Assembly (NCBI GenBank): GCA_965649115.1
Contig: CBFGJN010000001.1
Coordinates: 568-64,567, forward strand
Length of the DNA: 64,000 nt
Direction: 5' to 3'
Origin: a candidate division WOR-3 bacterium
GTDB taxonomy: Bacteria > Hydrothermota > Hydrothermia > LBFQ01 > DSFT01
Below the pieces are notes generated by a model that saw only the letters and a list, made by a program, of their open reading frames with translations, ran no database searches and had not been told where the DNA came from. Below are positions 11,236 to 59,366 of the stretch, piece by piece. How positions within the stretch are numbered: the stretch's first letter is position 1; each line of letters begins with the position of its first letter. Made by a program: the position numbers and the translations under genes.

Positions 11236-11237
11236 AT

Positions 11238-11612: not shown

Positions 11613-11680
11613 GATAGTAAGGAAAGTTATGCTTTAAAATTTTCAAAGTTAGCTATGCTAACTAAAAAGGAGGTAAGGGT

Positions 11681-18483: not shown

Positions 18484-18737
18484 GCTGTGTCTAATAATTC
18501 TGGAATTATTTATTTTCCTCCTAAAACAAGGATTTCTAATAAATTTTCATAAGTTAAAGCATAATTCTAAAAATATAATCATTCCTATTTAAGGCTTCAC
18601 AATTCATCAACCCTCCATTGTCTTGAAATGCTTGAAGTAATAGGGAATTAAAAAGGCTTAGAACCGAAGGCTCAATTCGTAGGGTGAGTGGTAAAAGTAT
18701 AGAAATAATTATACTCTCAGAATTTTTGGACACAGCA
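18484..18737. repeat. Repeat element with perfect inverted ends (head-to-head arrangement of family termini)
   Basis: Starts GCTGTGTCTAATAATTCTGG and ends CAGAATTTTTGGACACAGCA. The interior has AACCGAAGGCTC and AGGGTGAGTGG boxes in reverse orientation. Confidence 0.7.
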
Positions 18738-18757
18738 AAAACCATTTATTTTTTAGC

Positions 18758-18774
18758 TTTAAAATTTTCAAAGT
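18758..18774 (+). promoter_or_regulatory. Promoter-like palindrome CTTTAAAATTTTCAAAG upstream of serS
   Basis: Ends 4 nt before the serS ATG. No Shine-Dalgarno sequence. Confidence 0.5.
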
Positions 18775-24555: not shown

Positions 24556-24640
24556 ATCGGGTGGCTTTTTGGCTTTAAAAACTCCATTTTTTGGCATTGG
24601 GGGTTCGCCTTTATAAATACTTTGGGTGAGAAATTCCAAA
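24556..24640 (+). repeat. Degenerate repeat fragment
   Basis: GGGTGGC … GGGGGTTCGCCTTTATAAATAC boxes. Confidence 0.4.
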
Positions 24641-24645
24641 TTACC

Positions 24646-24828
24646 TGCTTTGTCCAATAAATAATGTTAAATGCCTAATAATCAATAACTTATAAAATTT
24701 TTAAGGAAATTATTGAATTTTAGCCCCCCATAACCGAAAAATGGGTATTTTTAAGCCGAAGGCTTAATTTCAGGGTGGGTGGGAAAAATATAGAAAAATA
24801 AATAATTTCAGAATTATTAGACACAGCA
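24646..24828 (-). repeat. Repeat copy in reverse orientation
   Basis: TGCTTTGTCCAATAAATAATG … AATCAATAACTTATAAAA … GCCCCCCATAACCGAAAAATGGG … AAGCCGAAGGCTT … AGGGTGGGTGGG … CAGAATTATTAGACACAGCA. Confidence 0.8.
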
Positions 24829-24863: not shown

Positions 24864-26327
24864 GTGGAAAAATTGTCTATTGAAATTTCTAATGGTGCTA
24901 TTGGTTTTTCGCTTCCAGAGTTAGATGTGCCAGAAGTTAAAATTGATGAGAGAATTCCAAGTCATTTATTAAGAAAAACAGAATTGAATTTACCTCAAAT
25001 TTCTGAAAATGAAACATTTAGACATTTTTTGAGATTATCTCAATTGAATTATAACATTGATAAAGGAATTTATCCACTTGGTTCTTGTACTATGAAATAT
25101 AATCCTAAAATAAATGAGGAATTGGCAAGGCACTATAAATTCGTTAATATCCACCCTCATACACCTATTGAATTTTCACAAGGTTGTTTAGCAATAATAT
25201 ATGAGTTATCTGAATTATTAAAAGAAATATCGGGAATGGATGCTGTTAGCTTACAAGCGGTAGCAGGTGCTCAGGGAGAATTGGCGGGTGTTTTAATTAT
25301 TTCAAAGTATCATAAAATGAAAAATGAAAAACGAGACATTATATTAGTTCCCGATTCAGCACATGGAACTAATCCAGCAACTGCTACACTTGCAGGTTTA
25401 AATACTATTGAAATTAAAACTATTGAAACAAATGGAATTTTAAGGGCTAAATTGGTTAAGAAAGAAGTTGAAAATTATGGAGAAAGAATAGCAGGTTTAA
25501 TGATTACAAATCCAAATACACTTGGTATATTTGAAGAAGAAATATATGAAATTTCGCAAATGCTTCATCAAATAGATGCACAAATATATATGGATGGAGC
25601 AAATATGAATGCATTAGTAGGGAATATAAAGCCTTCAAAATTTGGTATTGATGTAATGCACTTTAATTTACATAAAACATTTTCAACACCTCATGGAGGT
25701 GGTGGTCCTGGTAGTGGAGCAATTGCTGTTAAAAAACATCTTGAAAAATTTTTGCCAAATCCAAGAATTAGGAAAATTGGTGAGAAGTACGAGTTAGTTT
25801 ATGAAGATGAAGAATATAGCATTGGAAGATTACATAGTTTTTATGGAAATTTTGGAATGTTCATTAGAGCATTAGTATATATAAGAATGCTTTCAAGTGA
25901 AGGATTGAAAATGATTTCATATTTGGCGGTTTTAAATGCTAATTATTTGAGGAAAAGACTTGAAGAAATAGGATTTAAGATATCTTTTGATATGCCAACA
26001 ATGCATGAATTCGTTTTAACATTAAAAGATATAAAAGAAAAATATAATGTAAAAGCGTTAGATTTTGCTAAAAGAATTCTAGATTATGGTTATCATGCAC
26101 CTACAATTTATTTCCCTCTAATCGTTGAAGAAGCATTTATGATAGAACCGACTGAAAGTGAAAGTAAAATTTCACTTGATAATTATATTGAAGTTTATAG
26201 AAAAATTTTAAATGAGATAAGAGAAAACCCTGAAATTGTCCTTTCTGCTCCATTAAATACTCCTGTATCAAGACTTGATGAAGTTAAGGCAGCAAAAGAT
26301 TTAATTGTAAAATGGCAAGATATTTAA
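24864..26327 (+). CDS. gcvPB: Glycine dehydrogenase (decarboxylating) subunit 2
   Basis: GTG start. N-terminal LPQISENETFRHF block, a PLP-binding NLHKTFSTPHGGGGPG block, and approximately 487 aa. Confidence 0.9.
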   Translation: MEKLSIEISNGAIGFSLPELDVPEVKIDERIPSHLLRKTELNLPQISENETFRHFLRLSQLNYNIDKGIYPLGSCTMKYNPKINEELARHYKFVNIHPHTPIEFSQGCLAIIYELSELLKEISGMDAVSLQAVAGAQGELAGVLIISKYHKMKNEKRDIILVPDSAHGTNPATATLAGLNTIEIKTIETNGILRAKLVKKEVENYGERIAGLMITNPNTLGIFEEEIYEISQMLHQIDAQIYMDGANMNALVGNIKPSKFGIDVMHFNLHKTFSTPHGGGGPGSGAIAVKKHLEKFLPNPRIRKIGEKYELVYEDEEYSIGRLHSFYGNFGMFIRALVYIRMLSSEGLKMISYLAVLNANYLRKRLEEIGFKISFDMPTMHEFVLTLKDIKEKYNVKALDFAKRILDYGYHAPTIYFPLIVEEAFMIEPTESESKISLDNYIEVYRKILNEIRENPEIVLSAPLNTPVSRLDEVKAAKDLIVKWQDI

Positions 26328-26900: not shown

Positions 26901-27857
26901 TTAGTCACTTATTTCCATTACAATTTTTCCTCTAACATGACCGCTTTCTAATATCTTATGAGCTTTTTTAACACTTTCAACACTAAATGGTAAAACCTCT
27001 GAAATTATTGGTTTCACTAATCCCCTTTCAATAACTTCCTTCATTTCTTCAAGTCTTTTACTTTCTCTTGTTAAGAAAATCCCATATAGAGTTATATTAT
27101 TTCTATAAAGCAATGATAAATCTCCTTTCGGTGGTAATATACAAGCAACCCTTCCAAAAGGTTTAATTACAGGTAAAACTCTTGAAACGATGTTATCACC
27201 TTGAATATCAAAAGCACAGTCAACCCCTTTATTTTCAGTTATTTCCATAACAATTTTATTTACATCGTCATTATAGTCAATAACATAATCTGCTCCAATT
27301 TGCTTTAAGAAGTCAAAATTTCTTGGACTACTTGTTGCAATTACTCTTGCAGAAATCATTTTAGCAAACTGAACAGCAAAAGAACCAACACCACCTGCTC
27401 CCGAATGAATAAGAATTGTCTCGTAAGGCCTTATATTTAACCTTCTAACAATTGCTTCCCAGGCTGTTCCTCCTGCTAAGGGAACAGCTGATGCTTCAAT
27501 GAATGACAAATTTTTTGGTTTTTTTGAAACAATGTTTGCTTTAACAACATTATATTCTGCATAAGCACCATTTGGATTATTATATATTTCAGGAGTGTAA
27601 TAAACTTCATCACCGACTTTAAAATCTTTAACACCTTCCCCAACTTCTTCAACAATTCCACTTACATCATAACCTATTATAATAGGTGGCTTTAATCCAG
27701 CCCAAGTTCCATTTATTCTTATTTTATAATCAACAGGGTTAAAAGCAACTGCCTTAACCTTCACAAGTATTTCGCCAGCATTAGGTTTTGGTTTTTTCAT
27801 TTCAGTCATTTCAAAGTTTTCAACATCTCCAAACTCTTTAAGAACGATCGCACGCAT
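26901..27857 (-). CDS. Zinc-type alcohol dehydrogenase-like / NADPH:quinone oxidoreductase (MDR family)
   Basis: GroES-like N-terminal domain and Rossmann GxGxxG (GAGGVGSFAVQ) block. Confidence 0.85.
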   Translation of the reverse strand: MRAIVLKEFGDVENFEMTEMKKPKPNAGEILVKVKAVAFNPVDYKIRINGTWAGLKPPIIIGYDVSGIVEEVGEGVKDFKVGDEVYYTPEIYNNPNGAYAEYNVVKANIVSKKPKNLSFIEASAVPLAGGTAWEAIVRRLNIRPYETILIHSGAGGVGSFAVQFAKMISARVIATSSPRNFDFLKQIGADYVIDYNDDVNKIVMEITENKGVDCAFDIQGDNIVSRVLPVIKPFGRVACILPPKGDLSLLYRNNITLYGIFLTRESKRLEEMKEVIERGLVKPIISEVLPFSVESVKKAHKILESGHVRGKIVMEISD

Positions 27858-27896
27858 AGTTTGAAAATTTTAAAGCTTTTTAGAGACTTTCAATTG

Positions 27897-28032
27897 CTGT
27901 GTCTAGCCTAAAAATAAGGCTTCGCCTTATAAATGCCCATTTTTCGGCTATGGGAGGGCTTAAATTCAATAATTTCATTAAAAATTTTACAAGTTCTTGA
28001 TCGTCAAGGACTTAACACTATTTATTGGACAA
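27897..28032 (+). repeat. Compact repeat copy. Its 3' end overlaps the C-terminal codons of ORF 27987-28556.
   Basis: GCTGTGTCTAGCC … AAGGCTTCGCCTT (hairpin with swapped stem) … TTTTCGGCTATGGGAGGG … TCAAGGACTTAACACTATTTATTGGACAA. Confidence 0.7.
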
Positions 28033-28556
28033 TTGTATAATTGCAAATTTCTATTTATAATTTCTTTTAAATTTTTCAAAGTTTGACTTTTTTCAAAATT
28101 AGTGAAAATAATTTCTAAAACTTGTTCAAATTTAAATTCAGATTTGAGTTCCTTCAATTTGCCATAATTAGTTCCTTTTATTTCTTTATATATTTCATTT
28201 ACAAAACTTTCAATTGCTTTTGGTTTGACAATCCAAACTTGATGTTTGGGATTTTGTTTCTTTTTAAAAATTATCATTAAATCATTTTCGCATGAATTAT
28301 AATCTTCATGGAGTTTTAATTTTTTAGCGAGTTTATCAAAATGTTGTTCATTATCATAATCAAAAACTGCAATTATTAGTTTATTTTTATTATTATTTTT
28401 AATTCTTTTACAATAAGTTTTTATAACTCCATCATAACCACCTGTTTCTACTTCATCTGAGCAGTGTAAAACATCACAAACAGCATTTAGTTTTAAAAAA
28501 TCTCGTAATTTCTTAAAAAATGAGTAATCATTATTACATTCAACAATAAAAATCAT
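27987..28556 (-). CDS. Small TOPRIM-like protein (DUF4276/DUF4435-like), partner of the AAA_21 ATPase
   Basis: N-terminal IFIVEC (conserved Glu) followed by IIAVFDYDNE (DxD) about 60 aa later, the TOPRIM arrangement. Start overlaps the ATPase stop (ATGA). Confidence 0.5.
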   Translation of the reverse strand: MIFIVECNNDYSFFKKLRDFLKLNAVCDVLHCSDEVETGGYDGVIKTYCKRIKNNNKNKLIIAVFDYDNEQHFDKLAKKLKLHEDYNSCENDLMIIFKKKQNPKHQVWIVKPKAIESFVNEIYKEIKGTNYGKLKELKSEFKFEQVLEIIFTNFEKSQTLKNLKEIINRNLQLYNCPINSVKSLTIKNL

Positions 28557-29647
28557 TTTTTACTGAAATATTCAGTATTAAGGAAGGGGTCTAAATCTTC
28601 TTCTTGATAAATTTTTTCAGTTATATCAATAATTTTTGTTTCTTCATTCTCAAATTTAAATAGAAGAACTGCAACATCTTTATTTTCCTTACCTTCTCTA
28701 ACAAGTTTTCTAAATAGATAAGGATTATGAGTTGAAATGAAAAATTGGTTTTCACTATAATAAATATCTTTTGCCATTTCAAAAATAAATGGAGGGAAAA
28801 CTTTACTTTCAGGTTCTTCAAAAATTAAAGTTGAATTTTCTGATGAATGAATTGCTGATAAATAAAAGATGTAGTTCCTCAAAGTATCTGCTAACAATAG
28901 ATAAGAAAGTCTTATAATTTTCCCTTCCTTTTTCTTAACGACATAGTACTCCTTATCATCTACATCTTCGTAAATTTCATACCCTATTTTTTGAAGATAA
29001 AGTCTAAATCTCTCATAAACTTCTCTGTTTCTATTTAAAATTCCAAATATATTTTTGCCATAAGGTGGAATAAGGGAAGGATAATAAAAATTGTATCTTT
29101 CTTTTTCTTCTAAATCCAAATGATAATATCTTTTTACAGAATTTAAGGGTTTTGGTACTTCAATTTCACCAAGGTATTCAATTCCAAAATTTCCTTTATA
29201 AAATTTAAATTCCAAATTTTTTGAAATGGAAAAACTATAAAAAATTTTTCCTTTCATTTTTTCTGTGAGTTCTAAAAGATTTTTTACTTGTTCCAATTCT
29301 TCTTCAAATTTTAATTTGTCTTGATACCTTATTAGAAATCCGCAAACTGATTCAACATAATCAAAAATAATAAGTGAAAATTCTTTGTTAATATCAATAT
29401 AAATTTTTTCTTGAATGTTCTTAAAATAAAAAAGTTCATAGGGGGAGTTAATACGAATAATTTTTTTGTCAATTAACATTGGTGATTTCGTTAATAAAAA
29501 ATTTATAGGGTTTAAAATAGTTAAGGCTTCTAAAAAGTTGCTTTTCCCTGAGTTTGGACTTCCAATAATTAGATTTATTCTTCTTATATTTTCCAACTTA
29601 ACATCTTTAAGGGTTTTGAAATTTCTTATACTGATTTCTCTAATCAT
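28553..29647 (-). CDS. AAA_21/ABC-type ATPase of the OLD/PARIS-AriA-like defense family
   Basis: N-terminal ISIRNFKTLKDVKLENIRRINLIIGSPNSGKSNFLEAL (SMC-like Walker A), a LIFEEPESKVFP Walker B/D-loop, and an STHNPYL H-loop. Confidence 0.65.
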   Translation of the reverse strand: MIREISIRNFKTLKDVKLENIRRINLIIGSPNSGKSNFLEALTILNPINFLLTKSPMLIDKKIIRINSPYELFYFKNIQEKIYIDINKEFSLIIFDYVESVCGFLIRYQDKLKFEEELEQVKNLLELTEKMKGKIFYSFSISKNLEFKFYKGNFGIEYLGEIEVPKPLNSVKRYYHLDLEEKERYNFYYPSLIPPYGKNIFGILNRNREVYERFRLYLQKIGYEIYEDVDDKEYYVVKKKEGKIIRLSYLLLADTLRNYIFYLSAIHSSENSTLIFEEPESKVFPPFIFEMAKDIYYSENQFFISTHNPYLFRKLVREGKENKDVAVLLFKFENEETKIIDITEKIYQEEDLDPFLNTEYFSKK

Positions 29648-29682
29648 ATTTAAAATTTTAAAGGAAAAAATTTTATTTATCT

Positions 29683-29800
29683 GCTGTGTCTAGGAATTCT
29701 AAAATCATTTATTTTTCACCCTTTAAATAAAGCTTCGCCCTAATAAAATCAATAATCTCAAAAAAGTTTTTATAAGTTTGTGTCTAATAATTAATACCCC
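29683..29800 (+). repeat. Compact or degenerate repeat copy plus a fragment
   Basis: GCTGTGTCTAGGAATTCTAAAATCATTTATTTTTCACCC … AAAGCTTCGCCCT … AAAATCAATAATC, then GTTTGTGTCTAATAATTAATACCCCCC. Confidence 0.6.
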
Positions 29801-31648: not shown

Positions 31649-32551
31649 ATGAGGAAGCCTTCTATATTATTAATTTTCGTTATATCCTGTGCTAAAAGTA
31701 GTATGGAGAAATTTTGGCAAGATGGGAATCCTTTACCTTACAGCGTTGCAAATTTTGGATGGACATCAGACTTAAATGGTTTTTATATATTTGGAGGAGA
31801 TACAAGCTTTAATGATTATTCAACTTCAAGAATGATTATTTATAATAATAATTCTTATCAAATTTCTGAAACTTTAATAGCTCCTATTCACTTAAAAAAT
31901 TCCTGTATCGCTATTTATAATAATAAAGTTTATATTTTTGGGGGTTATATTGCTAATAGTCCGACGAATTATTTCTTTTCTTATGATTTAAATACAAAAA
32001 CTTATCAAGATTTAGGAAATTTGCCTTTTGATGCAGGAGGATGTTTTGCTCTTACTTTGAATAATAAAATTTACATTATTGTTGGTGCAAATACTTCTTC
32101 GTTTTATGAATTCAATCCTACAAATAATTCGTTTAATCAAAAGGCATCATTAAAATATAGTAGAGATGGGGCTTGTGCAGTTGTTTTAAATGGACAAATT
32201 TATGTCATTGGAGGAGGAAATGATAAGCTTGAGGCTTATGATATTACAACGAACGCTTGGATTGAAAAGAAAAATTTAGATATTAGTTTAAAAAATCATA
32301 CATGTTCAGTTTTAGATAATAATGTATATGTTTTTGGAGGTCAAACATCTTCAAATACTATTTCTTCAAAGGTTTTTAAATACGATCCTAATAGTGATAC
32401 TTGGACATATATAACTGATATGAAAACACCAAGAAAAGGGCTTGGTTCAGCAGTAATAGGAAATGAAATTTATATATTTGGTGGTATTGATGATAACAAT
32501 AACTTTACAAATAAAGTAGAGATATTTAAGGTTTCTCCTATTGTTTTTTAA
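31649..32551 (+). CDS. Kelch-repeat beta-propeller lipoprotein
   Basis: Lipoprotein signal (VISCAKSS). Six repeats of the xYIFGG/IYVIGG type. Confidence 0.7.
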   Translation: MRKPSILLIFVISCAKSSMEKFWQDGNPLPYSVANFGWTSDLNGFYIFGGDTSFNDYSTSRMIIYNNNSYQISETLIAPIHLKNSCIAIYNNKVYIFGGYIANSPTNYFFSYDLNTKTYQDLGNLPFDAGGCFALTLNNKIYIIVGANTSSFYEFNPTNNSFNQKASLKYSRDGACAVVLNGQIYVIGGGNDKLEAYDITTNAWIEKKNLDISLKNHTCSVLDNNVYVFGGQTSSNTISSKVFKYDPNSDTWTYITDMKTPRKGLGSAVIGNEIYIFGGIDDNNNFTNKVEIFKVSPIVF

Positions 32552-35115: not shown

Positions 35116-36756
35116 TTATTCTAAATTCAATATCTTTTTTATTATTTCATAGTGATTTTTAATTTCGTTATCATCAGGTTTCTTTTCATAGGCTTGCTTG
35201 ATGTACTTAAAAGCTTCTTCGTATTGACCTTTTTTAAATAATGCCCAGCCATAAGAATCTAATATAGATGCATCGTTTGGATTTAAAGAAATTGCCTTCT
35301 TTATTAATTCAAATCCTTTATTTATGTCTATATTTTCATTAACTAACATATATCCATAATTATTATAAACCATTGAAGCAAAAATGATAAACTGTTTATC
35401 AGTTGTTGTATCAATTATTTCCTGAATGATTTTTATCGTTTCTTCATAATAATATTGTGCTTTTTGGAAATCACCTTCTTTATTATATTCTTCTGCCAAT
35501 TCAAAATATGCTGAATAATCTTCTGGTTTTCTTTTAGTATATTCAATTAGAACCTCCTTTGCTTTTTTTTGAAATCCTATCCTTTTATAAAAATTTGAAA
35601 GTTCTCTATATCTTGATAAATTATCTTTATCATAATCAACTGCAAGTTTATAGTATTTTTCAGCAAGTTTAAGTTTGTTTTCATTTTCAAAGATGTTTGC
35701 CAGTGCAGAGAATAATGAGGGTTTTTTTGATTTAACACCTAATGCTAAATTTTTAGCTTCTTCATATCTCTTATCTTCTACTAACCAATGAATTTTTAAA
35801 ATTTTATAGTCATCTTTGAAATCTAAAATTTTATCAATAACTTTATAAGCTCTTTCCTTCATTTTAAGTTTATAATATGAGTAAGCAATAAAAAAGTCAT
35901 TGTCAGTTGAATAAGATAAACTATTTGCTAATTGTAAATTTTCTATCACTTTTGAGTAAAGACTATCTTGTTTTTTATCCTCTGCTATTTTATAATAAGA
36001 AAAACCCTTATATTTCCAACAATAATCTTCATCAGGGTAAGTCTTTAACAAATCTTCACATATCTCAATAACCCTTTCATATTCTTTATATCCAAATAGC
36101 ATACTCACAAGAAATTTATTAAATTCTTTTTTTTCTTTTAAAGAATAAATATATGCTCTAACACCCGTTAAAATTGCATTTTCTTTATCTCCTTTTTTGT
36201 TATAAATAGATGACAATGCAGCAAGAACTCTAAAATGTAATTCTTGATTTTTTAAAAAAACATCAATTGAACCTTTTATCTCAAAATTACTTAAAATACT
36301 ATCTGCTTTTTTTAGATAAAGTAAAGCTTGGTCATAATTCTTTTTTCTAAATAAAATTATTCCATAATTTACAAGATTTTCTAAATTTGATGTATCCATT
36401 TCATAAAGCTTTTTAAAAATACTATAAGCCTCTTCTATTTTATCCATATTATCTAAAAAAATTGCTTGATATTTGAGAAAGTTAGAATTTTCAGGAAATT
36501 TAAGATATGCTTTTTTTGACCAATTATAACCACCTTTTAAGTCTTTTAAACTTCCATGAATCCTTATTATTAAATCATAAGCTGAACTATCATCCACATA
36601 TTTAATATATTTTTTAAGTAATTTTAAAGCATTTTTGTAATCTTGTTTTTTTAAATAATAATTTGCTAATTCCTTTAAAGCAAATGTATCTTTTGATTTT
36701 ATTCTTTGTTTTAATTTAATTTCTGTTGTATCAATTAATAAAATTAAAAAAATCAC
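35116..36756 (-). CDS. TPR-repeat protein
   Basis: Multiple 34-residue repeats with W/LG/Y/A/F/A/P spacing ([20 protein letters not shown] and similar). Confidence 0.65.
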
Positions 36757-38138
36757 TCAGATGGTTTGTAAAACTTATCAAGGTACTCTTTTGAAATTCT
36801 AACTAATTCGCTTCTTGGTAGTATTGAGAGTAATTTCCAGCCAACTTCAAATGTTTGTTCTATCGTTCTACCTTCAAATCCTTGATTTATCATAACTTTT
36901 TCAAATTCGTCAGCGAATTTAATGTACTTTCTATCTATTTCAGATAAAGCATCTTCTCCTACAATTGCAGCAAGTCTTCTATTATCTTTTCCTCTTGCAT
37001 AAGCGGCAAAAATTTGATCTGCCCATTGTCTGTGATACTTTTCAGTTTTACCTTCACCAATTCCATTATTCATTAATCTTGAAAGTGAAGGTAATATGTC
37101 AATTGGTGGGAATATACCTAATCTATGTAATTCTCTTGATAGAACAATTTGTCCTTCTGTAATATAACCTGTTAAGTCTGGTATTGGATGAGTAATATCA
37201 TCATCAGGCATGGTTAAAATTGGAATTTGTGTAACTGAACCTTTTTTACCTTTAATTCTTCCTGCTCTCTCATATATACTTGCTAAATCGGTGTACATAT
37301 AACCAGGATAACCTCTTCTTCCTGGAACTTCCTCTCTTGCTGAGGAAATTTCTCTCAGTGCTTCACAATAATTTGTAATATCAGTTAAGATAACAAGGAC
37401 ATGGTAATCTAATTCAAATGCAAAGTATTCAGCAACAGTTAGGGCAAATCTTGGTGTTAAAATTCTTTCAATAGTAGGGTCATCAGCTAAGTTTATAAAT
37501 GCTATTAATCTATTACTTGCTCCCATTTCTTCAAATTGTTGTTTAAAATAAGCATATTCTCTTTGGGTTATACCAATTGCACCAAATACAATTAAGAATT
37601 GCTCACCTTCTCCTCTAACGGTAGCATATCTCATAATCATTGCTGCTATTTCATTTGCAGGAAGTCCTGAACCAGAAAATATAGGTAATTTTTGGCCTCT
37701 TACTAATGTGTTAAAACCATCAATAGCAGAAATTCCTGTTTGTATAAAGTCAGATGGTTTTTCCCTTGCGACAGGGTTTATTGGAGAACCTATGATTGGT
37801 AGCTTCTTTTCGGGTATAACTGGACCAAGGTCATCAATTGGTTCTCCTCTTCCATTGAATATTCTTCCAATCATATTTCTACTTACTCCAAAACGAATAA
37901 CATCTTCAACTAATTTTATTTTACATGTTTTAACATCAAGTCCAAGTGTTCCTTCAAGAACTTGAATGACTGCAAATTCTTCTGTAACTTCAAGAACTTG
38001 ACCACTTCTTTTAATACCCGTTTCAGTTTCTATTTCAACTAAAGCTCCATAAGAAAGTTCCTTAGCATTTTTTACTATTAATAGAGGTCCAGATATGTAA
38101 TCAACGGATGTCCATTCTTTAATAGATAAGTCAGTCAT
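36753..38138 (-). CDS. atpB: V/A-type ATP synthase subunit B (non-catalytic)
   Basis: High-confidence B-subunit blocks: [13 protein letters not shown] (degenerate P-loop), [25 protein letters not shown] and PSLSRLM. Confidence 0.9.
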
Positions 38139-38190
38139 ATTGAAAATTTTAAAGGGTAAATAATTTACTTTTCAGCTAAATCGGTTTTTT

Positions 38191-38350
38191 ACCACTTACC
38201 TGCTTTGTTTAATAATTCTAAAATTATTTATTTTTCTTTATTTCCCCACCCACCCTAAAAATAAGCCTTCGGCTTATAAAAGCCCCTATTTTTTTTCAGG
38301 AGGCTTTGCCCCCTTATTAACCCCCATAAAATCAATAGGGACTTAAAATA
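38191..38350 (+). repeat. Repeat copy (3'-truncated)
   Basis: TGCTTTGTTTAATAATTCTAAAATTATTTATTTTT … CCCACCCACCCTAAAAATAAGCCTTCGGCTTATAAAAGCCCC … CCCCCATAAAATCAATAGGGACTTAAAA. Confidence 0.75.
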
Positions 38351-38351
38351 T

Positions 38352-38996
38352 CTATAAAAAATTATCTATGCTAACTTCAAAAACTTCTTTAAAAATTCTT
38401 TCATTAAGAAGTGTTGAATAAATTTTTCCATTTTTCATAATAATAAAATCTTTAAAATACTTAATTGCTAAATGAATATCGTGAATTGTTAAAATAACTG
38501 TCTTGTTAATTTGATTTAGGTAATTTAAGAGTTTTATTTGGAAGTAAGGATCCAAGTGAGATAATGGTTCGTCAAGTATTAAAATTTTTGAATCTGAATT
38601 AATAACTCTACTTAACCTAACTCTTTGAATTTCTCCACTTGAAAGTTCATCTAATTTTTTGTTTAATAGGTTTGATATTTCAAAAATATCATATTTTAGT
38701 TTTATATTTGCTAAATTTAAATATGTTTTAACTTTTATGCTTGGGCAATATTCAACTTGTAATAAAAAAGAACAAAGTCTTGTAAGTTCTTTTTGACTAA
38801 TTTCACTTAATTCTTTATTAAATAATTTTATAGAGCCTTCATAATTTAACATTTTTAGTAGGGTTTTTATAAGTGTGCTTTTACCACTTCCATTCGGACC
38901 TAAAATGGCAATTTTCTGTCCTTCGTAAATTTCTAAATTACCTATATGAATTTTAAAATTTTTATAACCTGAAATAACATTTTTTAATTTTAACAA
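38352..38996 (-). CDS. ABC transporter ATP-binding protein (short, single-domain)
   Basis: Walker A GPNGSGKST, signature LSSGE, Walker B ILILDEP. Confidence 0.8.
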   Translation of the reverse strand: MLKLKNVISGYKNFKIHIGNLEIYEGQKIAILGPNGSGKSTLIKTLLKMLNYEGSIKLFNKELSEISQKELTRLCSFLLQVEYCPSIKVKTYLNLANIKLKYDIFEISNLLNKKLDELSSGEIQRVRLSRVINSDSKILILDEPLSHLDPYFQIKLLNYLNQINKTVILTIHDIHLAIKYFKDFIIMKNGKIYSTLLNERIFKEVFEVSIDNFL

Positions 38997-38999: not shown

Positions 39000-39620
39000 T
39001 TATATTTCTTTTCCGTGTTTAAAAATTTTACCTTCCATAAGAAAAATAACATCTTCACATATATTAGTACATAAATCTGCTATTCTTTCAAGATTTTGAA
39101 TAATGTTTATTGTCTTTATACCACTATCAACAAGATTTGAATTTTCCGTCATTAAACTGACAATTTTGTTAATCAGCTCATTTCTTAAATTATCAATTTC
39201 TTTGTCACCATTTAAAACTTCTCTTGCTATAACTAAATCATTATTCCTATATGAATTTATTGATTTTTGAAAGACATTGAAAACCTTTTCAAACAATTCA
39301 TCAATACTAATAATAACATTATCCTTTATTAGATAAAAGTCTCTTGCTATATTTTCAATATGGTCTGCTATTCTCTCTAAATCATTATTTACTTTAATAG
39401 CGGTTATGATTTTTCTTAAATCCATGGCTTCTGGTTGATACAATGCTAATATCCTTATTGCGAAAAATTCAATTTCAATTTCACTTTGATTAACACTATC
39501 TTCAAGTTTTAAAATTTCTTCATAATTATGACAATGTAAAAACATATTTTTTATAATATCTGACATCTGAAAAATTTTCTCTTCAAGTTCTTTCAATTCA
39601 TCAGAAAGGGGTTTTCTCAT
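39000..39620 (-). CDS. phoU: Phosphate transport system regulator PhoU
   Basis: Two PhoU repeats with a (D/E)LERIADH(I/A)ENIA block. Confidence 0.8.
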
Positions 39621-40375
39621 CCAAACCTTCCTGTTATATAATCTTCTGTTAGCTTTTGTTTAGGTCTAGTAAATATATCATCGGTTTTTCCATATTCTAT
39701 AATTTCTCCAAGGTACATAAAAGCTGTCCAGTCAGATACCCTTGCTGCTTGTTGCATATTATGAGTTACAATAACGATTGTCATTTTTTTACCAAGTTCC
39801 CTTATAAGTTCTTCAATTTTGGCAGTAGATATTGGGTCAAGGGCACTTGTTGGCTCATCAAATAATAAGACTTCTGGTTCAACCGCAATAGCCCTTGCTA
39901 TACATAGTCTTTGTTGTTGTCCGCCTGATAATGATAAGGCATTTTTGTTTAATTTGTCTTTTACCTCATCAAATAAATATGCGTCTTTTAGTGCTTTTTC
40001 AACCCTATCTTTAATTTCAGTTTTATTTTTTATTCCTTTAAGTTTAAGACCAAATGCGACATTATCAAAAATTGACATATTAAAAGGGGTTGGTTTTTGA
40101 AAAACCATTCCTATTCTCATTCTTAAACTTATGACATTTATATTATTTTTTAAAATATTTTCATTATCAAAAATAATTTCACCTTCATATTTCGTATTTG
40201 GATATAAATCGTGTATCCTATTTAAACATCTTAAAAATGTAGTTTTACCACATCCTGATGGACCAATTAGAGCGGTTATTTTGTTCTCAAAAATTTTCAA
40301 ATTTATGTTTTTAAGAACTTTTAAATTACCATAATAAAAATTTAAATTTTTGACCTCTATTTTGATATTTTCCAT
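39617..40375 (-). CDS. pstB: Phosphate ABC transporter ATP-binding protein PstB-like
   Basis: Walker [10 protein letters not shown], an [14 protein letters not shown] signature, and characteristic PstB length and C-terminus. Confidence 0.85.
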
Positions 40376-40469: not shown

Positions 40470-41423
40470 ATGCTTTGGATAACCAACCTTTTTCCAAAGA
40501 TAGGTTCATCTTATGGCAAAGAAGTAGATAATTTATTTTGGTTTATTTTTTGGATTTCACTATTTTTCTTTTTAATTGTTCAAATTGCTATGATTTACTT
40601 TGTAATTAAGTATAGAAATAAAAAGGAGGAGGAAGTTAGCACTGTTGAAGGAAACAATTTTCTTGAAATAACTTGGACAATTATTCCAACGATTATTCTT
40701 GTTATTATATTCTTTTATGGAGTTTATGTTTTTGATAACTTCCAAAGAAGACCTCCCGCTAATAGTATAGAGATAAAAGTTATTGGTCATCAGTGGTGGT
40801 GGGAATTTCAATATCCAAATGGTTATACTACAAGAGATACACTTATTGTTCCTACTAATAAACCAGTAAAACTCATTATGACATCAACTGATGTAATTCA
40901 TAGTTTTTATGTAAGAAGTTTTAGAATTAAAGAAGATGCTGTTCCTGGAAGATATACTTGGACTTGGTTTAAAGTAGTTGAACCTGGTGTTTATGATATT
41001 CAATGTGCGGAATATTGTGGTTCAAGACATTCAAAAATGATAGGATATATTAAGGCTGTAAATAGAAGTGATTTTGAAACGTGGCTGGCAAGTGTTTCCA
41101 AAGAAACTGATTTATCTTCATTATCTCCTGTTGAGAAAGGTAAGAAATTATCTCAAATTAAAGGTTGTACAAGTTGTCATTCAGTTGATGGTTCTCAACT
41201 TGTAGGACCAACTTGGAAAGGATTATATAACCATGAAGTAGTTGTTTTAGAGAATGGAAAAGAAAAGAAGATATTAGCAGATGAAAATTATTTGAGAGAA
41301 AGCATATTAAATCCAAATGCTAAAATTGTCAAAGGTTTTCAAAATATAATGCCTTCTTATCAGGGTCAATTAAGTGAAGATGAGATTTTAGCAATCATAG
41401 AATATATAAAAAGTTTGAAGTAA
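40470..41423 (+). CDS. coxB: Cytochrome c oxidase subunit II with fused C-terminal cytochrome c (caa3-type)
   Basis: CuA ligands H…CAEYCGSRHSKM and a heme-c CTSCH motif. Confidence 0.9.
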   Translation: MLWITNLFPKIGSSYGKEVDNLFWFIFWISLFFFLIVQIAMIYFVIKYRNKKEEEVSTVEGNNFLEITWTIIPTIILVIIFFYGVYVFDNFQRRPPANSIEIKVIGHQWWWEFQYPNGYTTRDTLIVPTNKPVKLIMTSTDVIHSFYVRSFRIKEDAVPGRYTWTWFKVVEPGVYDIQCAEYCGSRHSKMIGYIKAVNRSDFETWLASVSKETDLSSLSPVEKGKKLSQIKGCTSCHSVDGSQLVGPTWKGLYNHEVVVLENGKEKKILADENYLRESILNPNAKIVKGFQNIMPSYQGQLSEDEILAIIEYIKSLK

Positions 41424-41439
41424 AAGGAGGGATTTAGAT

Positions 41440-43047
41440 ATGCTAAATAAACTTTTAAGCCATGAACCAAGACCTGGGATATTAGGTTGGTTGTTTTCAA
41501 CAGATCATAAGAGAATTGCCCTTCTTTATTTTTGGACAATAATTTTCATTTTCTTAATAGCGGGTATTTTCGCACTCTTAATAAGAACTGAACTTTTCTT
41601 ACCTGGAAAGCAAATTGTTGATTCTGATACTTATAATAGATTATTCACACTACATGGTGTAATGATGGTTTTCTTAGTTATTGTTCCTTTAATACCTGCG
41701 GTCATGGGCAATTATTTAATTCCGCTTATGATAGGAGCAAGAGATGTTGCATTTCCAAAATTAAATCTTTTGAGTTATTGGATATTTTTAACAGGTGTTA
41801 TTATTATCCTATCTTCACTTATATTTGGTGCTATTGATACAGGTTGGACATTTTATACACCATATAGTCTTAAGACAGGCGGTGGTGTTTTATTGGCGCT
41901 ATTTGGTGTTTTTGTTGTTGGTTTTTCATCTATTTTAACAGGTCTGAATTTTGTCGTTACAATTCATAGGTTAAGAGCACCTGGAATGACATGGAGCAAA
42001 TTACCCCTTTTCGTTTGGGCTTTATATGCTACTTCACTAATGAATGTTATTTCAACACCTGTTATTGGTATAACATTATTACTATTAATTTTGGAAAGGG
42101 TTTTTGGTGTTGGCTTCTTTGATCCTACAAAAGGTGGAGATCCTTTAATGTTTCAACATTTCTTTTGGTTTTATTCTCATCCCGTTGTTTATATAATGAT
42201 ACTTCCAGGAATGGGTATAATTTCTGAATTAATTGCAGTTCATTCAAGAAAAAGGATATTTGGTTATTGGGCAATGGCTGCTGCCATTTTTGGAATTGCT
42301 TTTATTGGTTTTATTGTTTGGGCTCATCATATGTTCGTTAGTGGTATGTCTGATGTTGCAAGGTGGGTATTTTCATTCTTAACATTTTTTGTTGCTGTTC
42401 CAACAGGTGTTAAAATTTTTAATTGGGTAGCTACACTTTATAAAGGTTCAATTAGATTAACAACACCTATGTTATTTGCTTTGTCATTCTTATTCCTTTT
42501 TACAATTGGTGGATTAACGGGATTATGGCTTGCTACTATTGCTACTGATGTTTATTTACATGACACATATTTTGTAGTAGCACACTTTCATTATGTAATG
42601 GTTGGAGGTGCTATAACTGCATTCTTTGGTGGATTGTTCCATTGGTTTCCTAAAATTACAGGTAGAATGTACAACGAAAATTGGGGTAGGTTAGGAGCGA
42701 TTCTTATATTTATAGGTTTTAATCTAACATTCTTCCCACAATTTCTCTTGGGTATGCAAGGTATGCCAAGAAGATATTGGGATTATTTACCTGAATTTAC
42801 ATTATTAAATCAAATATCTACAATTGGTGCATATACAATAGCTCTTGGTGTTTTCATTTCACTAATAACATTACTTATAGCTTGGAGAAGAGGACAAAAA
42901 GCTTCTGAAAATCCTTGGGGTGGTGCAACACTTGAATGGAAGACTTCATCTCCACCACCATATTATAATTTTGAAGAAATACCACATGTAGAACACGGAC
43001 CTTATGATTTTGAACATTTATTAAAGAAAGAAAAAGTTTCTCAATAA
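41440..43047 (+). CDS. coxA: Cytochrome c oxidase subunit I
   Basis: 12-TM heme-copper oxidase with WAHHMF and HFHYV blocks. AAGGAGGG RBS. Confidence 0.95.
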   Translation: MLNKLLSHEPRPGILGWLFSTDHKRIALLYFWTIIFIFLIAGIFALLIRTELFLPGKQIVDSDTYNRLFTLHGVMMVFLVIVPLIPAVMGNYLIPLMIGARDVAFPKLNLLSYWIFLTGVIIILSSLIFGAIDTGWTFYTPYSLKTGGGVLLALFGVFVVGFSSILTGLNFVVTIHRLRAPGMTWSKLPLFVWALYATSLMNVISTPVIGITLLLLILERVFGVGFFDPTKGGDPLMFQHFFWFYSHPVVYIMILPGMGIISELIAVHSRKRIFGYWAMAAAIFGIAFIGFIVWAHHMFVSGMSDVARWVFSFLTFFVAVPTGVKIFNWVATLYKGSIRLTTPMLFALSFLFLFTIGGLTGLWLATIATDVYLHDTYFVVAHFHYVMVGGAITAFFGGLFHWFPKITGRMYNENWGRLGAILIFIGFNLTFFPQFLLGMQGMPRRYWDYLPEFTLLNQISTIGAYTIALGVFISLITLLIAWRRGQKASENPWGGATLEWKTSSPPPYYNFEEIPHVEHGPYDFEHLLKKEKVSQ

Positions 43048-43059
43048 GGAGGCTTAGAA

Positions 43060-43686
43060 ATGGAGCATATTTTAGAACATAAACATATTGAAACTACTCA
43101 TAGAGATGATTTTTCTGCTAAACTTGGAATGTGGCTATTCCTTGCAACTGAATTACTTCTTTTTGCAGGTCTATTCACACTTTATTTTTTATTTAGAGGA
43201 ATATACTTACCATTTTTTCATGAAGGTCAAAAGGAACTTCAACCAATTATAGGACTTATAAATAGTATTGTTTTATTTATTGGAGGATTAACAGCAGTTT
43301 TATCTATATCAGCAGCAAGAAAAGATAATAAAAACCACTTAATTCTATTTCTTTTTATTACAATTCTAACGGGATTAACATTTCTTGGAATAAAAGCTTA
43401 TGAATATGGTTTGAAGTTTGAGCATGGTTTATTCTTTAATATGGAACACTTTAAAAGTTTGCCAAATGGTGAAAAAATTTTCTTTTCTTTATATTTTGTA
43501 ATGACTGGTATTCATGCTTTACACGTTTTAATAGGTGTTATATTATTTTCATTTTTGTTATTTTTTGCCATTAGAGGAGATTATAATTCAAAAAACTACA
43601 TTCAAGTAGAAATAGGGGGATTATATTGGTGTCTTGTTGATTTAATATGGATGTATCTTTTTCCTCTTTTATATTTAATTAAGTAA
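43060..43686 (+). CDS. coxC: Cytochrome c oxidase subunit III
   Basis: Five to seven TM helices. The MWLFLATE and GIHALHVLIG blocks are typical of subunit III. Confidence 0.8.
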   Translation: MEHILEHKHIETTHRDDFSAKLGMWLFLATELLLFAGLFTLYFLFRGIYLPFFHEGQKELQPIIGLINSIVLFIGGLTAVLSISAARKDNKNHLILFLFITILTGLTFLGIKAYEYGLKFEHGLFFNMEHFKSLPNGEKIFFSLYFVMTGIHALHVLIGVILFSFLLFFAIRGDYNSKNYIQVEIGGLYWCLVDLIWMYLFPLLYLIK

Positions 43687-47984: not shown

Positions 47985-48527
47985 AATAAGTTATTTTCGA
48001 GTGGGTGGGGAAAATAAAGTTGCTTTGTTCAATAAAAATTTTAAGAAAACTATTGATTTTAGCGGGTTTTTAAGGGGGGCAAAGCCCCCCATAACCGAAA
48101 TAGACACAGCAAATATATTTTGCTTTGTCCAGTAATTATTGTCAATCACTTGATAATCAATAACTTATAAAATTTTTAGGGAAATTATAGATTTCATTAG
48201 GGGGATTTTAGGGGGGCGAAGTCCCCCACAGCCTAAAAATGGGCATTTTAAAGCCGAAAGCTTTTATTTAGGGTGAGCGAGGAAAAATAGTAAAATAAAT
48301 AATTTTAGAATTATTAGACACAGCAAATATATTTAACTTTGTCTAGTAATTGGTGTTAAGTTATTGATAATCAATAATTTGTGAAAACTTAATAAAATTA
48401 TTGTCTTTATGGGGGTTTTAAGGGGGGCGAAGCCCCCCATAGCCGAAATATGGGTATTTTAAAGCCGAAGGCTTAATTTTAGGGTGGGTGGGAAAAATAA
48501 ATGGTTTTAGAATTACTAGACACAGCA
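47985..48527 (-). repeat. Array of three reverse-orientation repeat units plus a leading fragment, separated by a constant AATATATTT(T/A) spacer
   Basis: Units approximately 48011-48111, 48122-48325 and 48336-48527. Each starts (T)GCTTTGTYYARTAA and ends AGACACAGCA. The GGGGGGC(A/G)AAG(C/T)CCCCC hairpin is present in all. Confidence 0.8.
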
Positions 48528-51992: not shown

Positions 51993-52054
51993 AGTATGAA
52001 ATTTTAAACGAGGTAAAAGATGAAAAATTATTTTAATGAGACTTTTGATTTCAT

Positions 52055-52180
52055 GGGGGGATTGAAGGGGGTGGTAGCCCCCTACTGCTGAAAAATGTGT
52101 ATTTTAAAGGTTCCACCTTGGTGGATGGGTAAAATAAAGAAATAATCTATATTTTAGAATTACTAGACAAAGAAAATAAT
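52055..52180 (-). repeat. Degenerate repeat copy in reverse orientation
   Basis: GGGGGGATTGAAGGGGGTGGTAGCCCCC … GGTGGATGGG … TTTAGAATTACTAGACAAAG. Confidence 0.55.
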
Positions 52181-52212: not shown

Positions 52213-53100
52213 ATGAAATTTCCAATTTCTTTAATTTTTTTAATCGTTTCATTATTTTTTTATTTTTTGAAAACTGATTTTTCTCTATTTTTTCTTTCAG
52301 TTCATAAATTGATGATAATTTTTATTGTTGGTTCATCGTTGTCAATTTCAGGTCTTATTTTACAAAATTTGTTAAAAAATCCACTTGTTGAACCATATAT
52401 TCTTGGTATATCTTCAGTTTCTGCGCTTGGTTATGTTTTATCAATTATTCTAAACTTAAATGTTGTTTTATCGAATATCTTAATGCTAATTTTTGTTTTT
52501 ATCTGTTTTTTTATTATTATGCTAAGTTATGATAATTCATTTAAGCTTATATTGGTCGGTATAGCAATAAATATGCTATCTTCAAGTTTAATAAATTTTT
52601 TGATGGCAATTTCAAAACAAGATATATTCAAAACAATTTTTATTCTTTGGGGAAATGTTGATAGAATTTTGAAAAAATCAGAAGTTATATTTCTATATTT
52701 CTGTTTTGTAGTAGTTATAATAATTATATTTTGGTTATTTTTAAATCGTAAAAAGCTTTTATTGTTATCACTTTCAGATGAAGAAGCATTAAGTTTTGGT
52801 TTTGATATAAAAAGATATAAAAAAATTTTTTTAATAATAAGCTTTTTCTTAACATCAATTAGTGTGTATTTTGCAGGAATTATTGGTTTTATAGGTTTGA
52901 TTGTTCCACATATTTCAAGGATGTTAAATGATGATAATTATAATTCTATAATTATTGATTGTATAGGTTTTTCAGTATCATTTATTATTCTTTCTTTTCT
53001 AATTTTTAAGTTTCTAAATTTATCTTTACCAATAGGAATTATAACTTCAATCATTGGAACACCAATTTTTATTATAATTCTTTTAAGATATTTTAGGTGA
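52213..53100 (+). CDS. FecCD/BtuC-family ABC permease (vitamin B12/siderophore type)
   Basis: Close block matches to BtuC: LQNLLKNPLVEPYILG, LWGNVDR, AGIIGFIGLIVPHISRML and LPIGIITSIIGTPIF. Confidence 0.8.
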   Translation: MKFPISLIFLIVSLFFYFLKTDFSLFFLSVHKLMIIFIVGSSLSISGLILQNLLKNPLVEPYILGISSVSALGYVLSIILNLNVVLSNILMLIFVFICFFIIMLSYDNSFKLILVGIAINMLSSSLINFLMAISKQDIFKTIFILWGNVDRILKKSEVIFLYFCFVVVIIIIFWLFLNRKKLLLLSLSDEEALSFGFDIKRYKKIFLIISFFLTSISVYFAGIIGFIGLIVPHISRMLNDDNYNSIIIDCIGFSVSFIILSFLIFKFLNLSLPIGIITSIIGTPIFIIILLRYFR

Positions 53101-57138: not shown

Positions 57139-57250
57139 TAATTCCAATTTCGGTTATGGGGGGCAAAGCCCTCTTAACCCCCGATAAATCAACTATTTTA
57201 AGGACTTAACAATAATTACTGAACAAATAGTTCGGCTGTGGGGCTGAGCA
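57139..57250 (+). repeat. Partial repeat copy (3' portion)
   Basis: TTCGGTTATGGGGGGCAAAGCCC … CCCCCGATAAATCAAC … AAGGACTTAACAATAATTACTGAACAAA. Confidence 0.6.
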
Positions 57251-57262: not shown

Positions 57263-58660
57263 TTATATTTTTTCTTCTTCAAGATTAATAAATTTTAAAT
57301 TTTTAGATTTTATTTCTTTTAATATACTTCCAAGTGATTTTAGTGTGTTTTTTCTTTCGTGAAATAGAATTATTGAACCTCCTCTTAATTGGTTAATTAC
57401 TTTAAAATAAATTCCATTTGGACTTAAAAGTTTCCAATCTTCTGAATCATCGTTCCATAAAACTACTTTCATATTTAAGTCTCTTATTACTGAATCCATA
57501 GTGTAGGAATATCTTCCATAAGGTGGTCTAAAAAGGAAGGGTTTAAAACCTGTTAATTTCTCTATTAATTTATTTGTAGTATCAATCTCTTTTCTTATCG
57601 TTTTATAATCTTTAAAAATTAAAACAGGTGAGTGTGAATATGAATGATTTCCAATTATGTGTCCCCTCTTATAAATTTCTAAAACTTCATTTGGATATTT
57701 TTCTATATTCTTTCCAACTAGAAAGAAAACAGCTTTTATTTGGTATTTATCTAAGGTATCAAGTATTTGTTTTGTCCATGGACTTGGTCCATCATCAAAT
57801 GTTATTAAAACTTCGTCTTTGCTATTTAATTGATATATAATATATGGCTTTTTAAGTAATTTTTTGTTTAGTTGAGCATGGACTTCAAAGTACGAAAATG
57901 TAATTAGTATAATAGCAAAAACTACAAATGCTAAAATGTTTCTTCTTTTTATCTCTCTAATTGGTGGTAAGTTCTTCATAATAGGTTTTTTAAAAACATT
58001 TAAAAAGATGTAATTTAGTAAAATATATACAAATAAAGATTTAAAAAGACCCATTTTAAATCTCCTACTTGATGTAATAACAGGATTGTTAATGGTTTTT
58101 ACTTTGCCTATTTTCTTTAAACGATTGCCAAGGTCAATATCTTCGCCTGTTATAAAATTTAAATTAAATCCACCCACTTTCAAAAATGCTGATTTTTTAA
58201 CTGCAAAATTACAACCTGCAAAACTATTATTTCCTTTTATCATTCTTTCAATTTTTAAGACAATTGGTGTAAAAATTTTAAAAATTAATGATGTAAAATT
58301 AAAGACCTCTTTAAATTTTACTTCTCCATTTAAAGCAATTATATTTTCATCTTTTTTAAATTCCTCAACATATTTACTTATCCAATTTCTTGGAACAATA
58401 GTGTCAGCATCTGTTGATAAAATAATATCCCCACTTGCATTTAAAAATCCTGTTTGTCTTGCAAAGGCAGTTCCTTTTCTATTTTCAACAATTACTTTAA
58501 CAGGATAATTTTTTAAAATTTCTAATGTTCTATCAGTAGAACCATTATCAACAACAATAATTTCATATTCTTCTTCATAATCTTGATTTAGCAAAGATTC
58601 TATACAATTTTTTATATATTTTTCTTCATTATAAACAGGAATAACGATAGAAACTTTCAT
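57263..58660 (-). CDS. Bifunctional GT2 glycosyltransferase / polysaccharide deacetylase (PgaC-PgaB-like fusion)
   Basis: N-terminal VSIVIPVYNEE…DADT GT2 motifs, central TM helices, and a C-terminal NodB domain (ITFDDGP, GNHSYSH). The start at 58660 (MKVSIVIP) is preferred over the longer ORF that runs into the repeat. Confidence 0.75.
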   Translation of the reverse strand: MKVSIVIPVYNEEKYIKNCIESLLNQDYEEEYEIIVVDNGSTDRTLEILKNYPVKVIVENRKGTAFARQTGFLNASGDIILSTDADTIVPRNWISKYVEEFKKDENIIALNGEVKFKEVFNFTSLIFKIFTPIVLKIERMIKGNNSFAGCNFAVKKSAFLKVGGFNLNFITGEDIDLGNRLKKIGKVKTINNPVITSSRRFKMGLFKSLFVYILLNYIFLNVFKKPIMKNLPPIREIKRRNILAFVVFAIILITFSYFEVHAQLNKKLLKKPYIIYQLNSKDEVLITFDDGPSPWTKQILDTLDKYQIKAVFFLVGKNIEKYPNEVLEIYKRGHIIGNHSYSHSPVLIFKDYKTIRKEIDTTNKLIEKLTGFKPFLFRPPYGRYSYTMDSVIRDLNMKVVLWNDDSEDWKLLSPNGIYFKVINQLRGGSIILFHERKNTLKSLGSILKEIKSKNLKFINLEEEKI

Positions 58661-58699
58661 AATATATAAAATTTTAAAGTTTAATGTTGATTTTTTTGT

Positions 58700-58903
58700 G
58701 CCTTGTCCAATAATTCTGGAAATATAATTATTTCTATATTTTCCCACCCGCCCTAAAAATAAGCCTTCGGCTTTAAAAAACCCCATCTTTTGCTATGGGG
58801 GGCTCTGCCCCCCATAAAGTGCCCCCATTATTTCAAGTATTTCAATTAATACTTAATAAGTAGTTGATTATCAATCACTTAGCAATAATTATTGGACAAA
58901 GCA
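58700..58903 (+). repeat. Full-length repeat unit
   Basis: GCCTTGTCCAATAATTCTGG … CCCACCCGCCC … AAGCCTTCGGCTT … GGGGGGCTCTGCCCCCC … TTGATTATCAATCA … AATTATTGGACAAAGCA. Preceded by ATTTTTTTGT. Confidence 0.8.
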
Positions 58904-58913
58904 AGAGTTAGTT

Positions 58914-59116
58914 GCTGTGTCTAAGAATTCTGAAAGTATTTATTTTTCTTATTTTGCCCACCCGCCCTGAAATAAAGGCTACGCCTTTAAAATGCCCATT
59001 TTTCGGCTGTGGGGGGCTCCGCCCCCCATTAGATCCCCCATAAAATCAATAGTTTTATTGAAATTTTCGTAAGTCATTGATAATCAAGGATTTAACAATA
59101 ATTATTGGACAAAGCA
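58914..59116 (+). repeat. Full-length repeat unit (tandem to the previous one)
   Basis: GCTGTGTCTAAGAATTCTGAAA … CCCACCCGCCC … AAAGGCTACGCCTTT (stem-swapped hairpin) … GGGGGGCTCCGCCCCCC … AATTATTGGACAAAGCA. Followed by ATTTTTTTGT. Confidence 0.8.
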
Positions 59117-59126
59117 ATTTTTTTGT

Positions 59127-59200
59127 GCTGTGTCCAGTAATTCTGAAATATAAAATAATTCTTTTTCCCCCGAAAAATCAAGAGTTTTAATTAACAATAT
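59127..59200 (+). repeat. 5' fragment of a third tandem repeat unit
   Basis: GCTGTGTCCAGTAATTCTGAAATATAAAATAATTC. Confidence 0.6.
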
Positions 59201-59207: not shown

Positions 59208-59225
59208 GCTTTAAAATTTTCAAAC
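59208..59225 (+). promoter_or_regulatory. Promoter-like palindrome GCTTTAAAATTTTCAAAC immediately upstream of the riboswitch
   Basis: The riboswitch P1 stem begins 1-2 nt after the motif. Confidence 0.55.
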
Positions 59226-59226
59226 A

Positions 59227-59366
59227 TGCAGGCGACAGGGAAGAGGGGTGAAATTCCCCCGCTGTCCCAGCAGCCGTGATGGGCATAAAAATTGCCCCTG
59301 AAAGCCACTGCCGAAAGGTGGGAAGGCTCAGGGGTTTTTAGCCCTAAGCCGGAAGACCTGCCTGCA
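59227..59366 (+). promoter_or_regulatory. Cobalamin (AdoCbl) riboswitch
   Basis: P1 TGCAGGC…GCCTGCA. Conserved AGGGAAGAGGGGTGAAATTCCCC, GCCACTG and GGGAAGGC elements. B12 box AAGCCGGAAGACCTGCC. A downstream hairpin CCCTTCCTG…CAGGAAGGGG can sequester the GGAGG RBS. Confidence 0.85.

Follow-up and report, generated by a model that had tools for sequence, protein, structure and literature searches.

A solitary V/A-type ATP synthase B subunit gene in a candidate division WOR-3 bacterium, probably the result of dispersal of an ancestral operon

We studied a stretch of 64,000 nucleotides (the window) from a candidate division WOR-3 bacterium (assembly GCA_965649115.1, contig CBFGJN010000001.1), with a G+C content of ~27%, that encodes the B subunit of a V/A-type ATP synthase (atpB/ntpB, hereafter B). 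An earlier note on this DNA, made from its letters alone (the original prediction), had described a clear V-type B gene standing by itself, without the A or D gene alongside, and this was borne out by family scores and by three kinds of search across the window. The protein itself is ordinary and already annotated, and the interest lies in the arrangement of the genes. In all likelihood, B is a normal subunit that stands alone as the ancestral operon of its clade has been dispersed into separate loci.

In comparisons with protein families, B matched PF02874 (ATP-synt_ab_N, 38 bits), PF00006 (ATP-synt_ab, 266 bits) and PF22919 (ATP-synt_VA_C, 96 bits), all above the cut-offs, and thereby displayed the three-domain architecture of an N-terminal β-barrel, an α/β nucleotide-binding domain and a V/A-type C-terminal domain. 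The score against the NCBIfam subfamily model NF003235 (V-type ATP synthase subunit B) was 744.4 bits, compared to a cut-off of 349. The best solved relative was chain B of the Thermus thermophilus V/A-ATPase (3a5c_D, 705 bits over residues 3 to 457), and identity to the Marinithermus B subunit was 70.5%. Near-invariant columns, defined as at least 97% conserved across 94 other B subunits, were kept at 164 of 171 positions (96%), and most of the seven changes were to isoleucine, as expected from the base composition. The segment SLSRL, which we take to be the arginine finger that the B subunit contributes to the catalytic site of the A subunit, was intact at residue 351, and PGRRGYPGY was found at residue 272. 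The Walker A motif GxxxxGK[ST] was absent, the P-loop being replaced by a degenerate nucleotide site, SGSGLP (residue 155). Both SGSGLP and SLSRL are common to the window protein and the Thermus thermophilus/Marinithermus B (3a5c chain D), which also agree in family and domain architecture. An identical protein is held at NCBI as MEO0223467.1, [quoted passage not shown], and the labels within its 90% cluster are WOR-3 or Candidatus Hydrothermia. Judged by these sequence features, B is a well-conserved, bona fide V/A-type ATP synthase subunit and no orphan with a new role.

No partner gene was detected around it. When B was compared by phmmer to all open reading frames (ORFs) of the window, it was its own sole match; Marinithermus A, C, D, E, F, G, I and K baits, as well as jackhmmer profiles trained on ~80 operons, recovered no partner subunit in the window, and Pfam scans of window ORFs of at least 70 aa gave B as the only V-ATPase family. 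A further 10 kb of sequence past the right end of the window, from a metagenome-assembled genome (MAG) of the same species, contained no V-ATPase gene, while on the left side the MAG contig stops ~1 kb outside the window. Neither A nor D was thus present in the 36.7 kb on the left side of B or in the ~36 kb on its right side, and the gene lacks the canonical ...F-A-B-D setting, with A directly upstream and D directly downstream on the same strand.

As a baseline for this setting, we used 80 loci of other lineages fetched with the B protein, plus two Thermaceae-type operons. A scan of genome contigs with the B protein was saturated by universally conserved peptides and returned distant B loci only (at most 69% identity), with no genome of the clade. 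A was located directly upstream of B in ~60 of 64 other-lineage loci and D directly downstream in ~73 of 76 (in both counts, artefacts of overlapping stop-to-stop ORFs were discounted), and compared to these numbers, the claim that the canonical operon is split here was upheld. The next-closest B outside the clade, which is Thermaceae-like and 72% identical, resides in a full G-I-K-E-C-F-A-B-D operon, and the Marinithermus operon is full as well. Thus, while Thermus and Marinithermus have nine genes in one atpGIKECFABD operon, the B of the window is separate and paired with a gene for a TPR protein, although its role is presumed to be the same, as part of the sole ATP synthase of an aerobic thermophile.

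Since the window derives from a MAG, a chimeric junction created during assembly or binning could in principle hide flanking A and D genes, as the original prediction had allowed. However, a contig of another MAG (GCA_039803085.1) was 99.98% identical to the window over 15.6 kb and had the same ABC-repeat-B-TPR order, and a Logan contig from another run contained the same B-TPR junction. Two JGI contigs from a sister species, with 89 to 90% nucleotide identity, together span the whole ABC-B-TPR stretch, L136 carrying pstB-phoU-ABC and the start of B, and L194 carrying B-TPR. The junction itself, read directly, is a GTGA in which the GTG start of the TPR gene overlaps the stop codon of B. The repeated order in MAG, Logan and JGI contigs excludes a mis-assembled junction that conceals A or D, and the probability we leave to an artefact of this kind is practically negligible. 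The sole structural difference from the GCA_039803085.1 contig was an indel of ~66 bp (32202-32269) inside a Kelch-repeat gene (31649-32551), which is present as two ORFs in that MAG.

The solitary state of B was found across the clade. In the contigs of five more distant relatives, whose B proteins were 74 to 79% identical to that of the window, B was solitary in every case and lay in five different neighbourhoods (Table 1). Synteny with relatives, which the original prediction had named as a check, thus comprised these five lone B genes and the locus kept in the sister species. Subunit C was likewise solitary in three relatives (L003, L093/L094 and L095), with an AIRS-family gene next after C in L093/L094 and L095. 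In L003, C and B were 8 kb apart, and this was the closest V-ATPase pair in the WOR-3 clade; an adjacent pair of V-ATPase genes was never found in the clade loci examined. Among the other lineages, true exceptions to the canonical order were L015, L039, L073 and L081, in which A was detached from B, and the Methanocaldococcus loci L035/L036 together with L085, in which D was detached; these unrelated lineages comprised a UBP2 bacterium, a Deltaproteobacteria MAG, a Halobacteriota MAG, a Thermoplasmata MAG and Methanocaldococcus. Unlike in the WOR-3 clade, most of the operon was still clustered in Methanocaldococcus and in L015. L039 and L081 had only B-D within the fetched flanks, whereas no adjacent pair was found in the WOR-3 clade.

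A 23-nt pattern taken from an intergenic repeat of the window (11 window matches, none expected) was used to retrieve 120 metagenome loci, amounting to 839 kb in total and ~704 kb after removal of redundancy, with a median G+C of 27%. The loci that overlapped the window were 85 to 93% identical to it. On two sister-species contigs, D (L199) and F (L200) were each found as solitary genes followed by unrelated genes (Table 1). Weak matches to subunit I in L118 and L123 were rejected as coiled-coil false positives, and a 704-aa "B" (P0004), considered as a B fusion, proved to be a B with an internal duplication that belongs to another organism. L199 also carries a gene cluster (9656-12418, plus strand) that is divergent from its solitary D and whose first product had no Pfam match and begins like a type I-B Cas8b/Cst1 protein.

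Some observations count against the dispersal reading. D and F were found in metagenome contigs of sister species and not in the genome of the window, to which nothing but the shared repeat family and a low G+C ties these contigs. We located the catalytic A gene neither in this species (~74 kb) nor in any clade member, and no A was present in the ~704 kb of non-redundant repeat-pattern contigs. With Marinithermus A as bait, the best 120 matches were all A subunits, 77 to 100% identical, from other phyla, and none could be identified as WOR-3; their amino-acid composition singled out no WOR-3 candidate either. When the C subunit of the clade was used as query for an A nearby, C was also solitary. 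The search for the remaining subunit genes, suggested in the original prediction, therefore succeeded in relatives for C, D and F and failed for A. In addition, B scored 727.7 bits against the stricter archaeal equivalog TIGR01041 and did not reach its cut-off of 844.65, and the promoter function and leaderless transcription proposed below are deduced from the position of a motif only.

With A not found, the rest of the genome unseen and the equivalog cut-off not reached, it could be hypothesized that B is an extra paralogue with a moonlighting role, and that another locus of the genome carries a complete canonical operon including a B of its own. This is very improbable, however, as near-invariant positions including SLSRL were kept, a single type of B was recovered from the lineage, B was solitary in every clade member examined, and C, D and F were solitary in relatives and not in an operon. 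Both proposals had been raised in the original prediction, and both are made unlikely by the results: a moonlighting role by the 96% of near-invariant positions retained and by the solitary D and F of sister species, and a paralogue beside a complete operon by the same D and F, which do not belong to a second operon.

The failure to find A, and a genome so scrambled that several further gene sets are split, could also mean that the V/A-ATPase is being lost and that B remains from a gene set in decay, without a functional complex. We consider this highly unlikely. The ORFs of B, C, D and F were intact over their full length and scored strongly against their families, and since they are intact in relatives so divergent (74 to 79% identity in B), they must have been under long-term purifying selection. 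Furthermore, the window contains an intact cytochrome c oxidase operon (40470-43686), and an aerobic respiratory chain needs an ATP synthase, while no F1 α/β or FliI homologue was seen in the window or in the ~704 kb of related contigs. For this part of WOR-3, a complete or nearly complete V-type ATPase gene set has been reported alongside cytochrome c oxidase (PMC12285271, PMC4791363), and neither paper mentions the order of the V-ATPase genes. The supplements of PMC12285271 contain neither a V-ATPase gene list nor any of these assemblies.

The original prediction had accurately described the surroundings of B, with a repeat and then an ABC ATPase gene upstream and a TPR protein downstream, and it had suggested that the repeat may mark a rearrangement. 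The 213-nt spacer between B and the ABC ATPase gene does contain one copy of a repeat, directly upstream of B, and the family is dense, with 24 full or partial copies in 64 kb. A recent local split of the operon by recombination at this copy is nevertheless very unlikely. The repeat was present in 11 of 21 intergenic regions of the window, 16 of the 19 assessable copies point at the downstream gene, and the locus is kept in the sister species at ~89% identity. The family was also absent from eight loci with a solitary B or C (L003, L005, L007, L008, L090, L091, L093 and L095), and therefore the repeat cannot have split the operon; the split predates it. As one of 24 generic copies of a family that relatives with a lone B do not have, the adjacent repeat gives no support to a rearrangement at this site.

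Sister-species contigs contained 232 copies of the repeat in 839 kb, and no Rfam family matched it. In the window, it was found at 72-407, 2572-2927, 11311-11611, 18484-18737, 24571-24828, 27854-27961, 29682-29743, 38201-38336, 48051-48527, 52044-52172, 57144-57192, 58699-59171 and 63088-63372, often in tandem with units ~210 nt apart, and its contents include G6/C6 and TAAGCC/GGCTTA hairpins, a GGGTGGGTGGG tract and a TAGAAT box. The TAAGCC/GGCTTA hairpin of the copy before B has the features of an intrinsic terminator, i.e., a G+C-containing hairpin, a T-run directly after it and a stem kept by compensatory change. One stem pair was compensatory over 229 copies (CG in 172 and GC in 30), with a paired fraction of 0.91 compared to 0.69 when shuffled. 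This hairpin probably ends the transcript of the upstream ABC ATPase gene, and by its sequence the repeat looks like a terminator-plus-spacer cassette. Elsewhere in the window, the start (58786) of an ORF at 57263-58786 on the minus strand overlaps a repeat copy (58699-58836) and a promoter-like motif (58665-58679); its true start is probably near 58660, and NCBI calls a shorter protein of 465 aa.

Immediately before B, we found an exact match to a promoter-like motif, CTTTAAAATTTTCAA, which was frequent in the window (38 matches with at most two mismatches, compared to 7.1 expected) and which, in many first genes, precedes the start codon by 1 to 10 nt. It also preceded tRNA-Gly and tRNA-Leu by 3 to 4 nt, and a cobalamin riboswitch had it at the 5' end. 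Over the window and the 120 repeat-pattern loci, an ORF start (at least 60 aa) followed within 0 to 10 nt in 116 of 176 occurrences. Further sites in the window were 18757-18771, 27861-27875, 11632-11646, 2539-2553 and 59209-59223, along with ~30 near-matches. At B, the -10-like box TAAAAT within the motif ends 8 nt before the ATG, with 7 nt between, and a promoter scan returned CTGAAA-18-TAAAAT at 38175-38146. Given the position of TAAAAT, transcription would therefore start at or next to the start codon of B and yield a leaderless mRNA. For the solitary D and F, the motif was located 3 nt before the starts (L199 ~9642-9656 and L200 ~393-407), so that all three genes have CTTTAAAATTTTCAA or CTTTAAAATTTTAAA 1 to 3 nt before the start codon. 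The shared motif suggests that B, D and F are separate leaderless transcription units, and CTTTAAAATTTTCAA looks like a -10 region that may give leaderless transcripts genome-wide.

We therefore propose the following for the dispersal of the operon. An ancestral G-I-K-E-C-F-A-B-D operon would have been broken up in the WOR-3 clade (with NCBI labels Hydrothermia or WOR-3), leaving subunit genes at separate loci, within mixed transcription units alongside unrelated genes. In the window, B would head a two-gene unit, B-TPR, and would probably be transcribed from its own promoter, with the -10-like box 7 nt before the ATG, as a leaderless mRNA, while the terminator-like hairpin in the generic repeat would insulate it from the upstream ABC ATPase gene. 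We infer that A and the remaining subunits are encoded elsewhere in this genome, and by analogy to Thermus the products would assemble into one A3B3DF-stalk-rotor complex. This operon ranks among the most conserved in prokaryotes. The stronger claim, that all nine subunit genes are at separate loci (a fully atomised operon), each heading a mixed transcription unit or lying within one, and several of them with the near-identical leaderless-type motif, is one that we favour only by a little. If it is true, the stoichiometry of a machine of 25-plus subunits would be set without co-expression from an operon, and the clade would provide the first bacterial parallel to Crenarchaeota.

In Crenarchaeota, A-type ATP synthase genes are dispersed as single genes and small clusters (Thermoproteus tenax and Ignicoccus hospitalis; PMC3189178, PMC2614490), and in Ignicoccus the ATP synthase is among ~180 disrupted gene clusters (PMC2614490). 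Ignicoccus and the window are alike in that dispersal of the ATP synthase is part of a general disruption of gene clusters. However, Crenarchaeota are archaea, whereas the present case is bacterial, and here full solitude applies to each of B, C, D and F at least. A homologue of the B subunit is also known from Nanoarchaeum equitans (NEQ263; PDB 5bn3), a genome known for broken operons (PMC2614490); NEQ263 diverges far more (341 bits) and is part of the incomplete subunit set of a reduced A-ATPase, whereas the B of the window is near-canonical. No report of V/A-ATPase gene dispersal in WOR-3 was found in the literature searched. Our case is thus a new bacterial instance of a known phenomenon, and its novelty is modest. 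Still, as in Crenarchaeota, the only ATP synthase of this bacterial lineage, which is free-living, aerobic and thermophilic, appears to be encoded by scattered genes, and the lineage could serve as a test case both for how the subunit ratios of a rotary ATPase are controlled without an operon and for how far operons decay when any gene can gain a compact promoter directly next to its start codon. There is a warning for annotation as well, since "incomplete V-ATPase" calls made from operon context in WOR-3 MAGs may reflect dispersal.

Table 1. Positions of B, of the features next to it and of solitary subunit genes in relatives
Feature	Sequence	Position	Strand	Description
atpB/ntpB (B)	window	36753..38138	-	461 aa; V/A-type ATP synthase non-catalytic B subunit; probably first gene of its own transcription unit
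TPR-repeat protein gene	window	35116..36756	-	546 aa; many TPR Pfam families; downstream of B
FecE/BtuD-like small ABC ATPase gene	window	38352-38996	-	upstream of B; beyond it phoU, then pstB
Repeat copy	window	38201..38336	-	137-nt core; nhmmer E = 3e-33; points towards B
Terminator-like hairpin	window	38257..38276	-	TAAGCC-GAA-GGCTTA + TTTTT; inside repeat; read from sequence and RNA fold
Promoter-like motif CTTTAAAATTTTCAA	window	38140..38154	-	exact match; 1 nt before B ATG
Solitary D	L199	9000-9638		PF01813, 155 bits; then queD-like, ruvC and ruvA genes; sister-species contig
Solitary F	L200	411-737		PF01990, 38 bits; then pyrimidine-nucleoside phosphorylase gene; sister-species contig
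Downstream of solitary B	L003/L004			S8 peptidase gene
Downstream of solitary B	L005/L006			two genes of unknown function
Downstream of solitary B	L007/L008			glutamate dehydrogenase gene
Downstream of solitary B	L090			glycosyltransferase gene
Downstream of solitary B	L091			convergent priA

Given the overlap of its start codon with the stop codon of B, the TPR gene is probably co-transcribed and translationally coupled with B. The loci in which a TPR homologue adjoined B were limited to those of the same species (L001, L002) and to contig L194, which is ~90% identical, and none was found beside B in L003, L005, L007, L090 or L091. The TPR protein was therefore rejected as a conserved partner of B, the pairing being limited to this species and its sister species.

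Other gene sets in the window were also split. Genes for uptake of the B12/siderophore type were scattered, with the FecE/BtuD-like ATPase upstream of B, a FecCD permease 13 kb away (52213-53100, plus strand) and, 7 kb past the permease, a TonB-plug receptor gene (59213-60841, plus strand) behind a cobalamin riboswitch (Rfam RF00174, 85.8 bits). The pair pstB-phoU (39000-40375, minus strand) was found without pstS, pstC and pstA, and gcvPB, encoding subunit 2 of the glycine-cleavage P-protein (24864-26327, plus strand), without gcvPA, gcvH and gcvT. Finally, a gene pair at 27987-29647 on the minus strand encodes an AAA_15/AAA_21 ATPase (364 aa) and a DUF3226 protein (189 aa), which may constitute a defence-type module.

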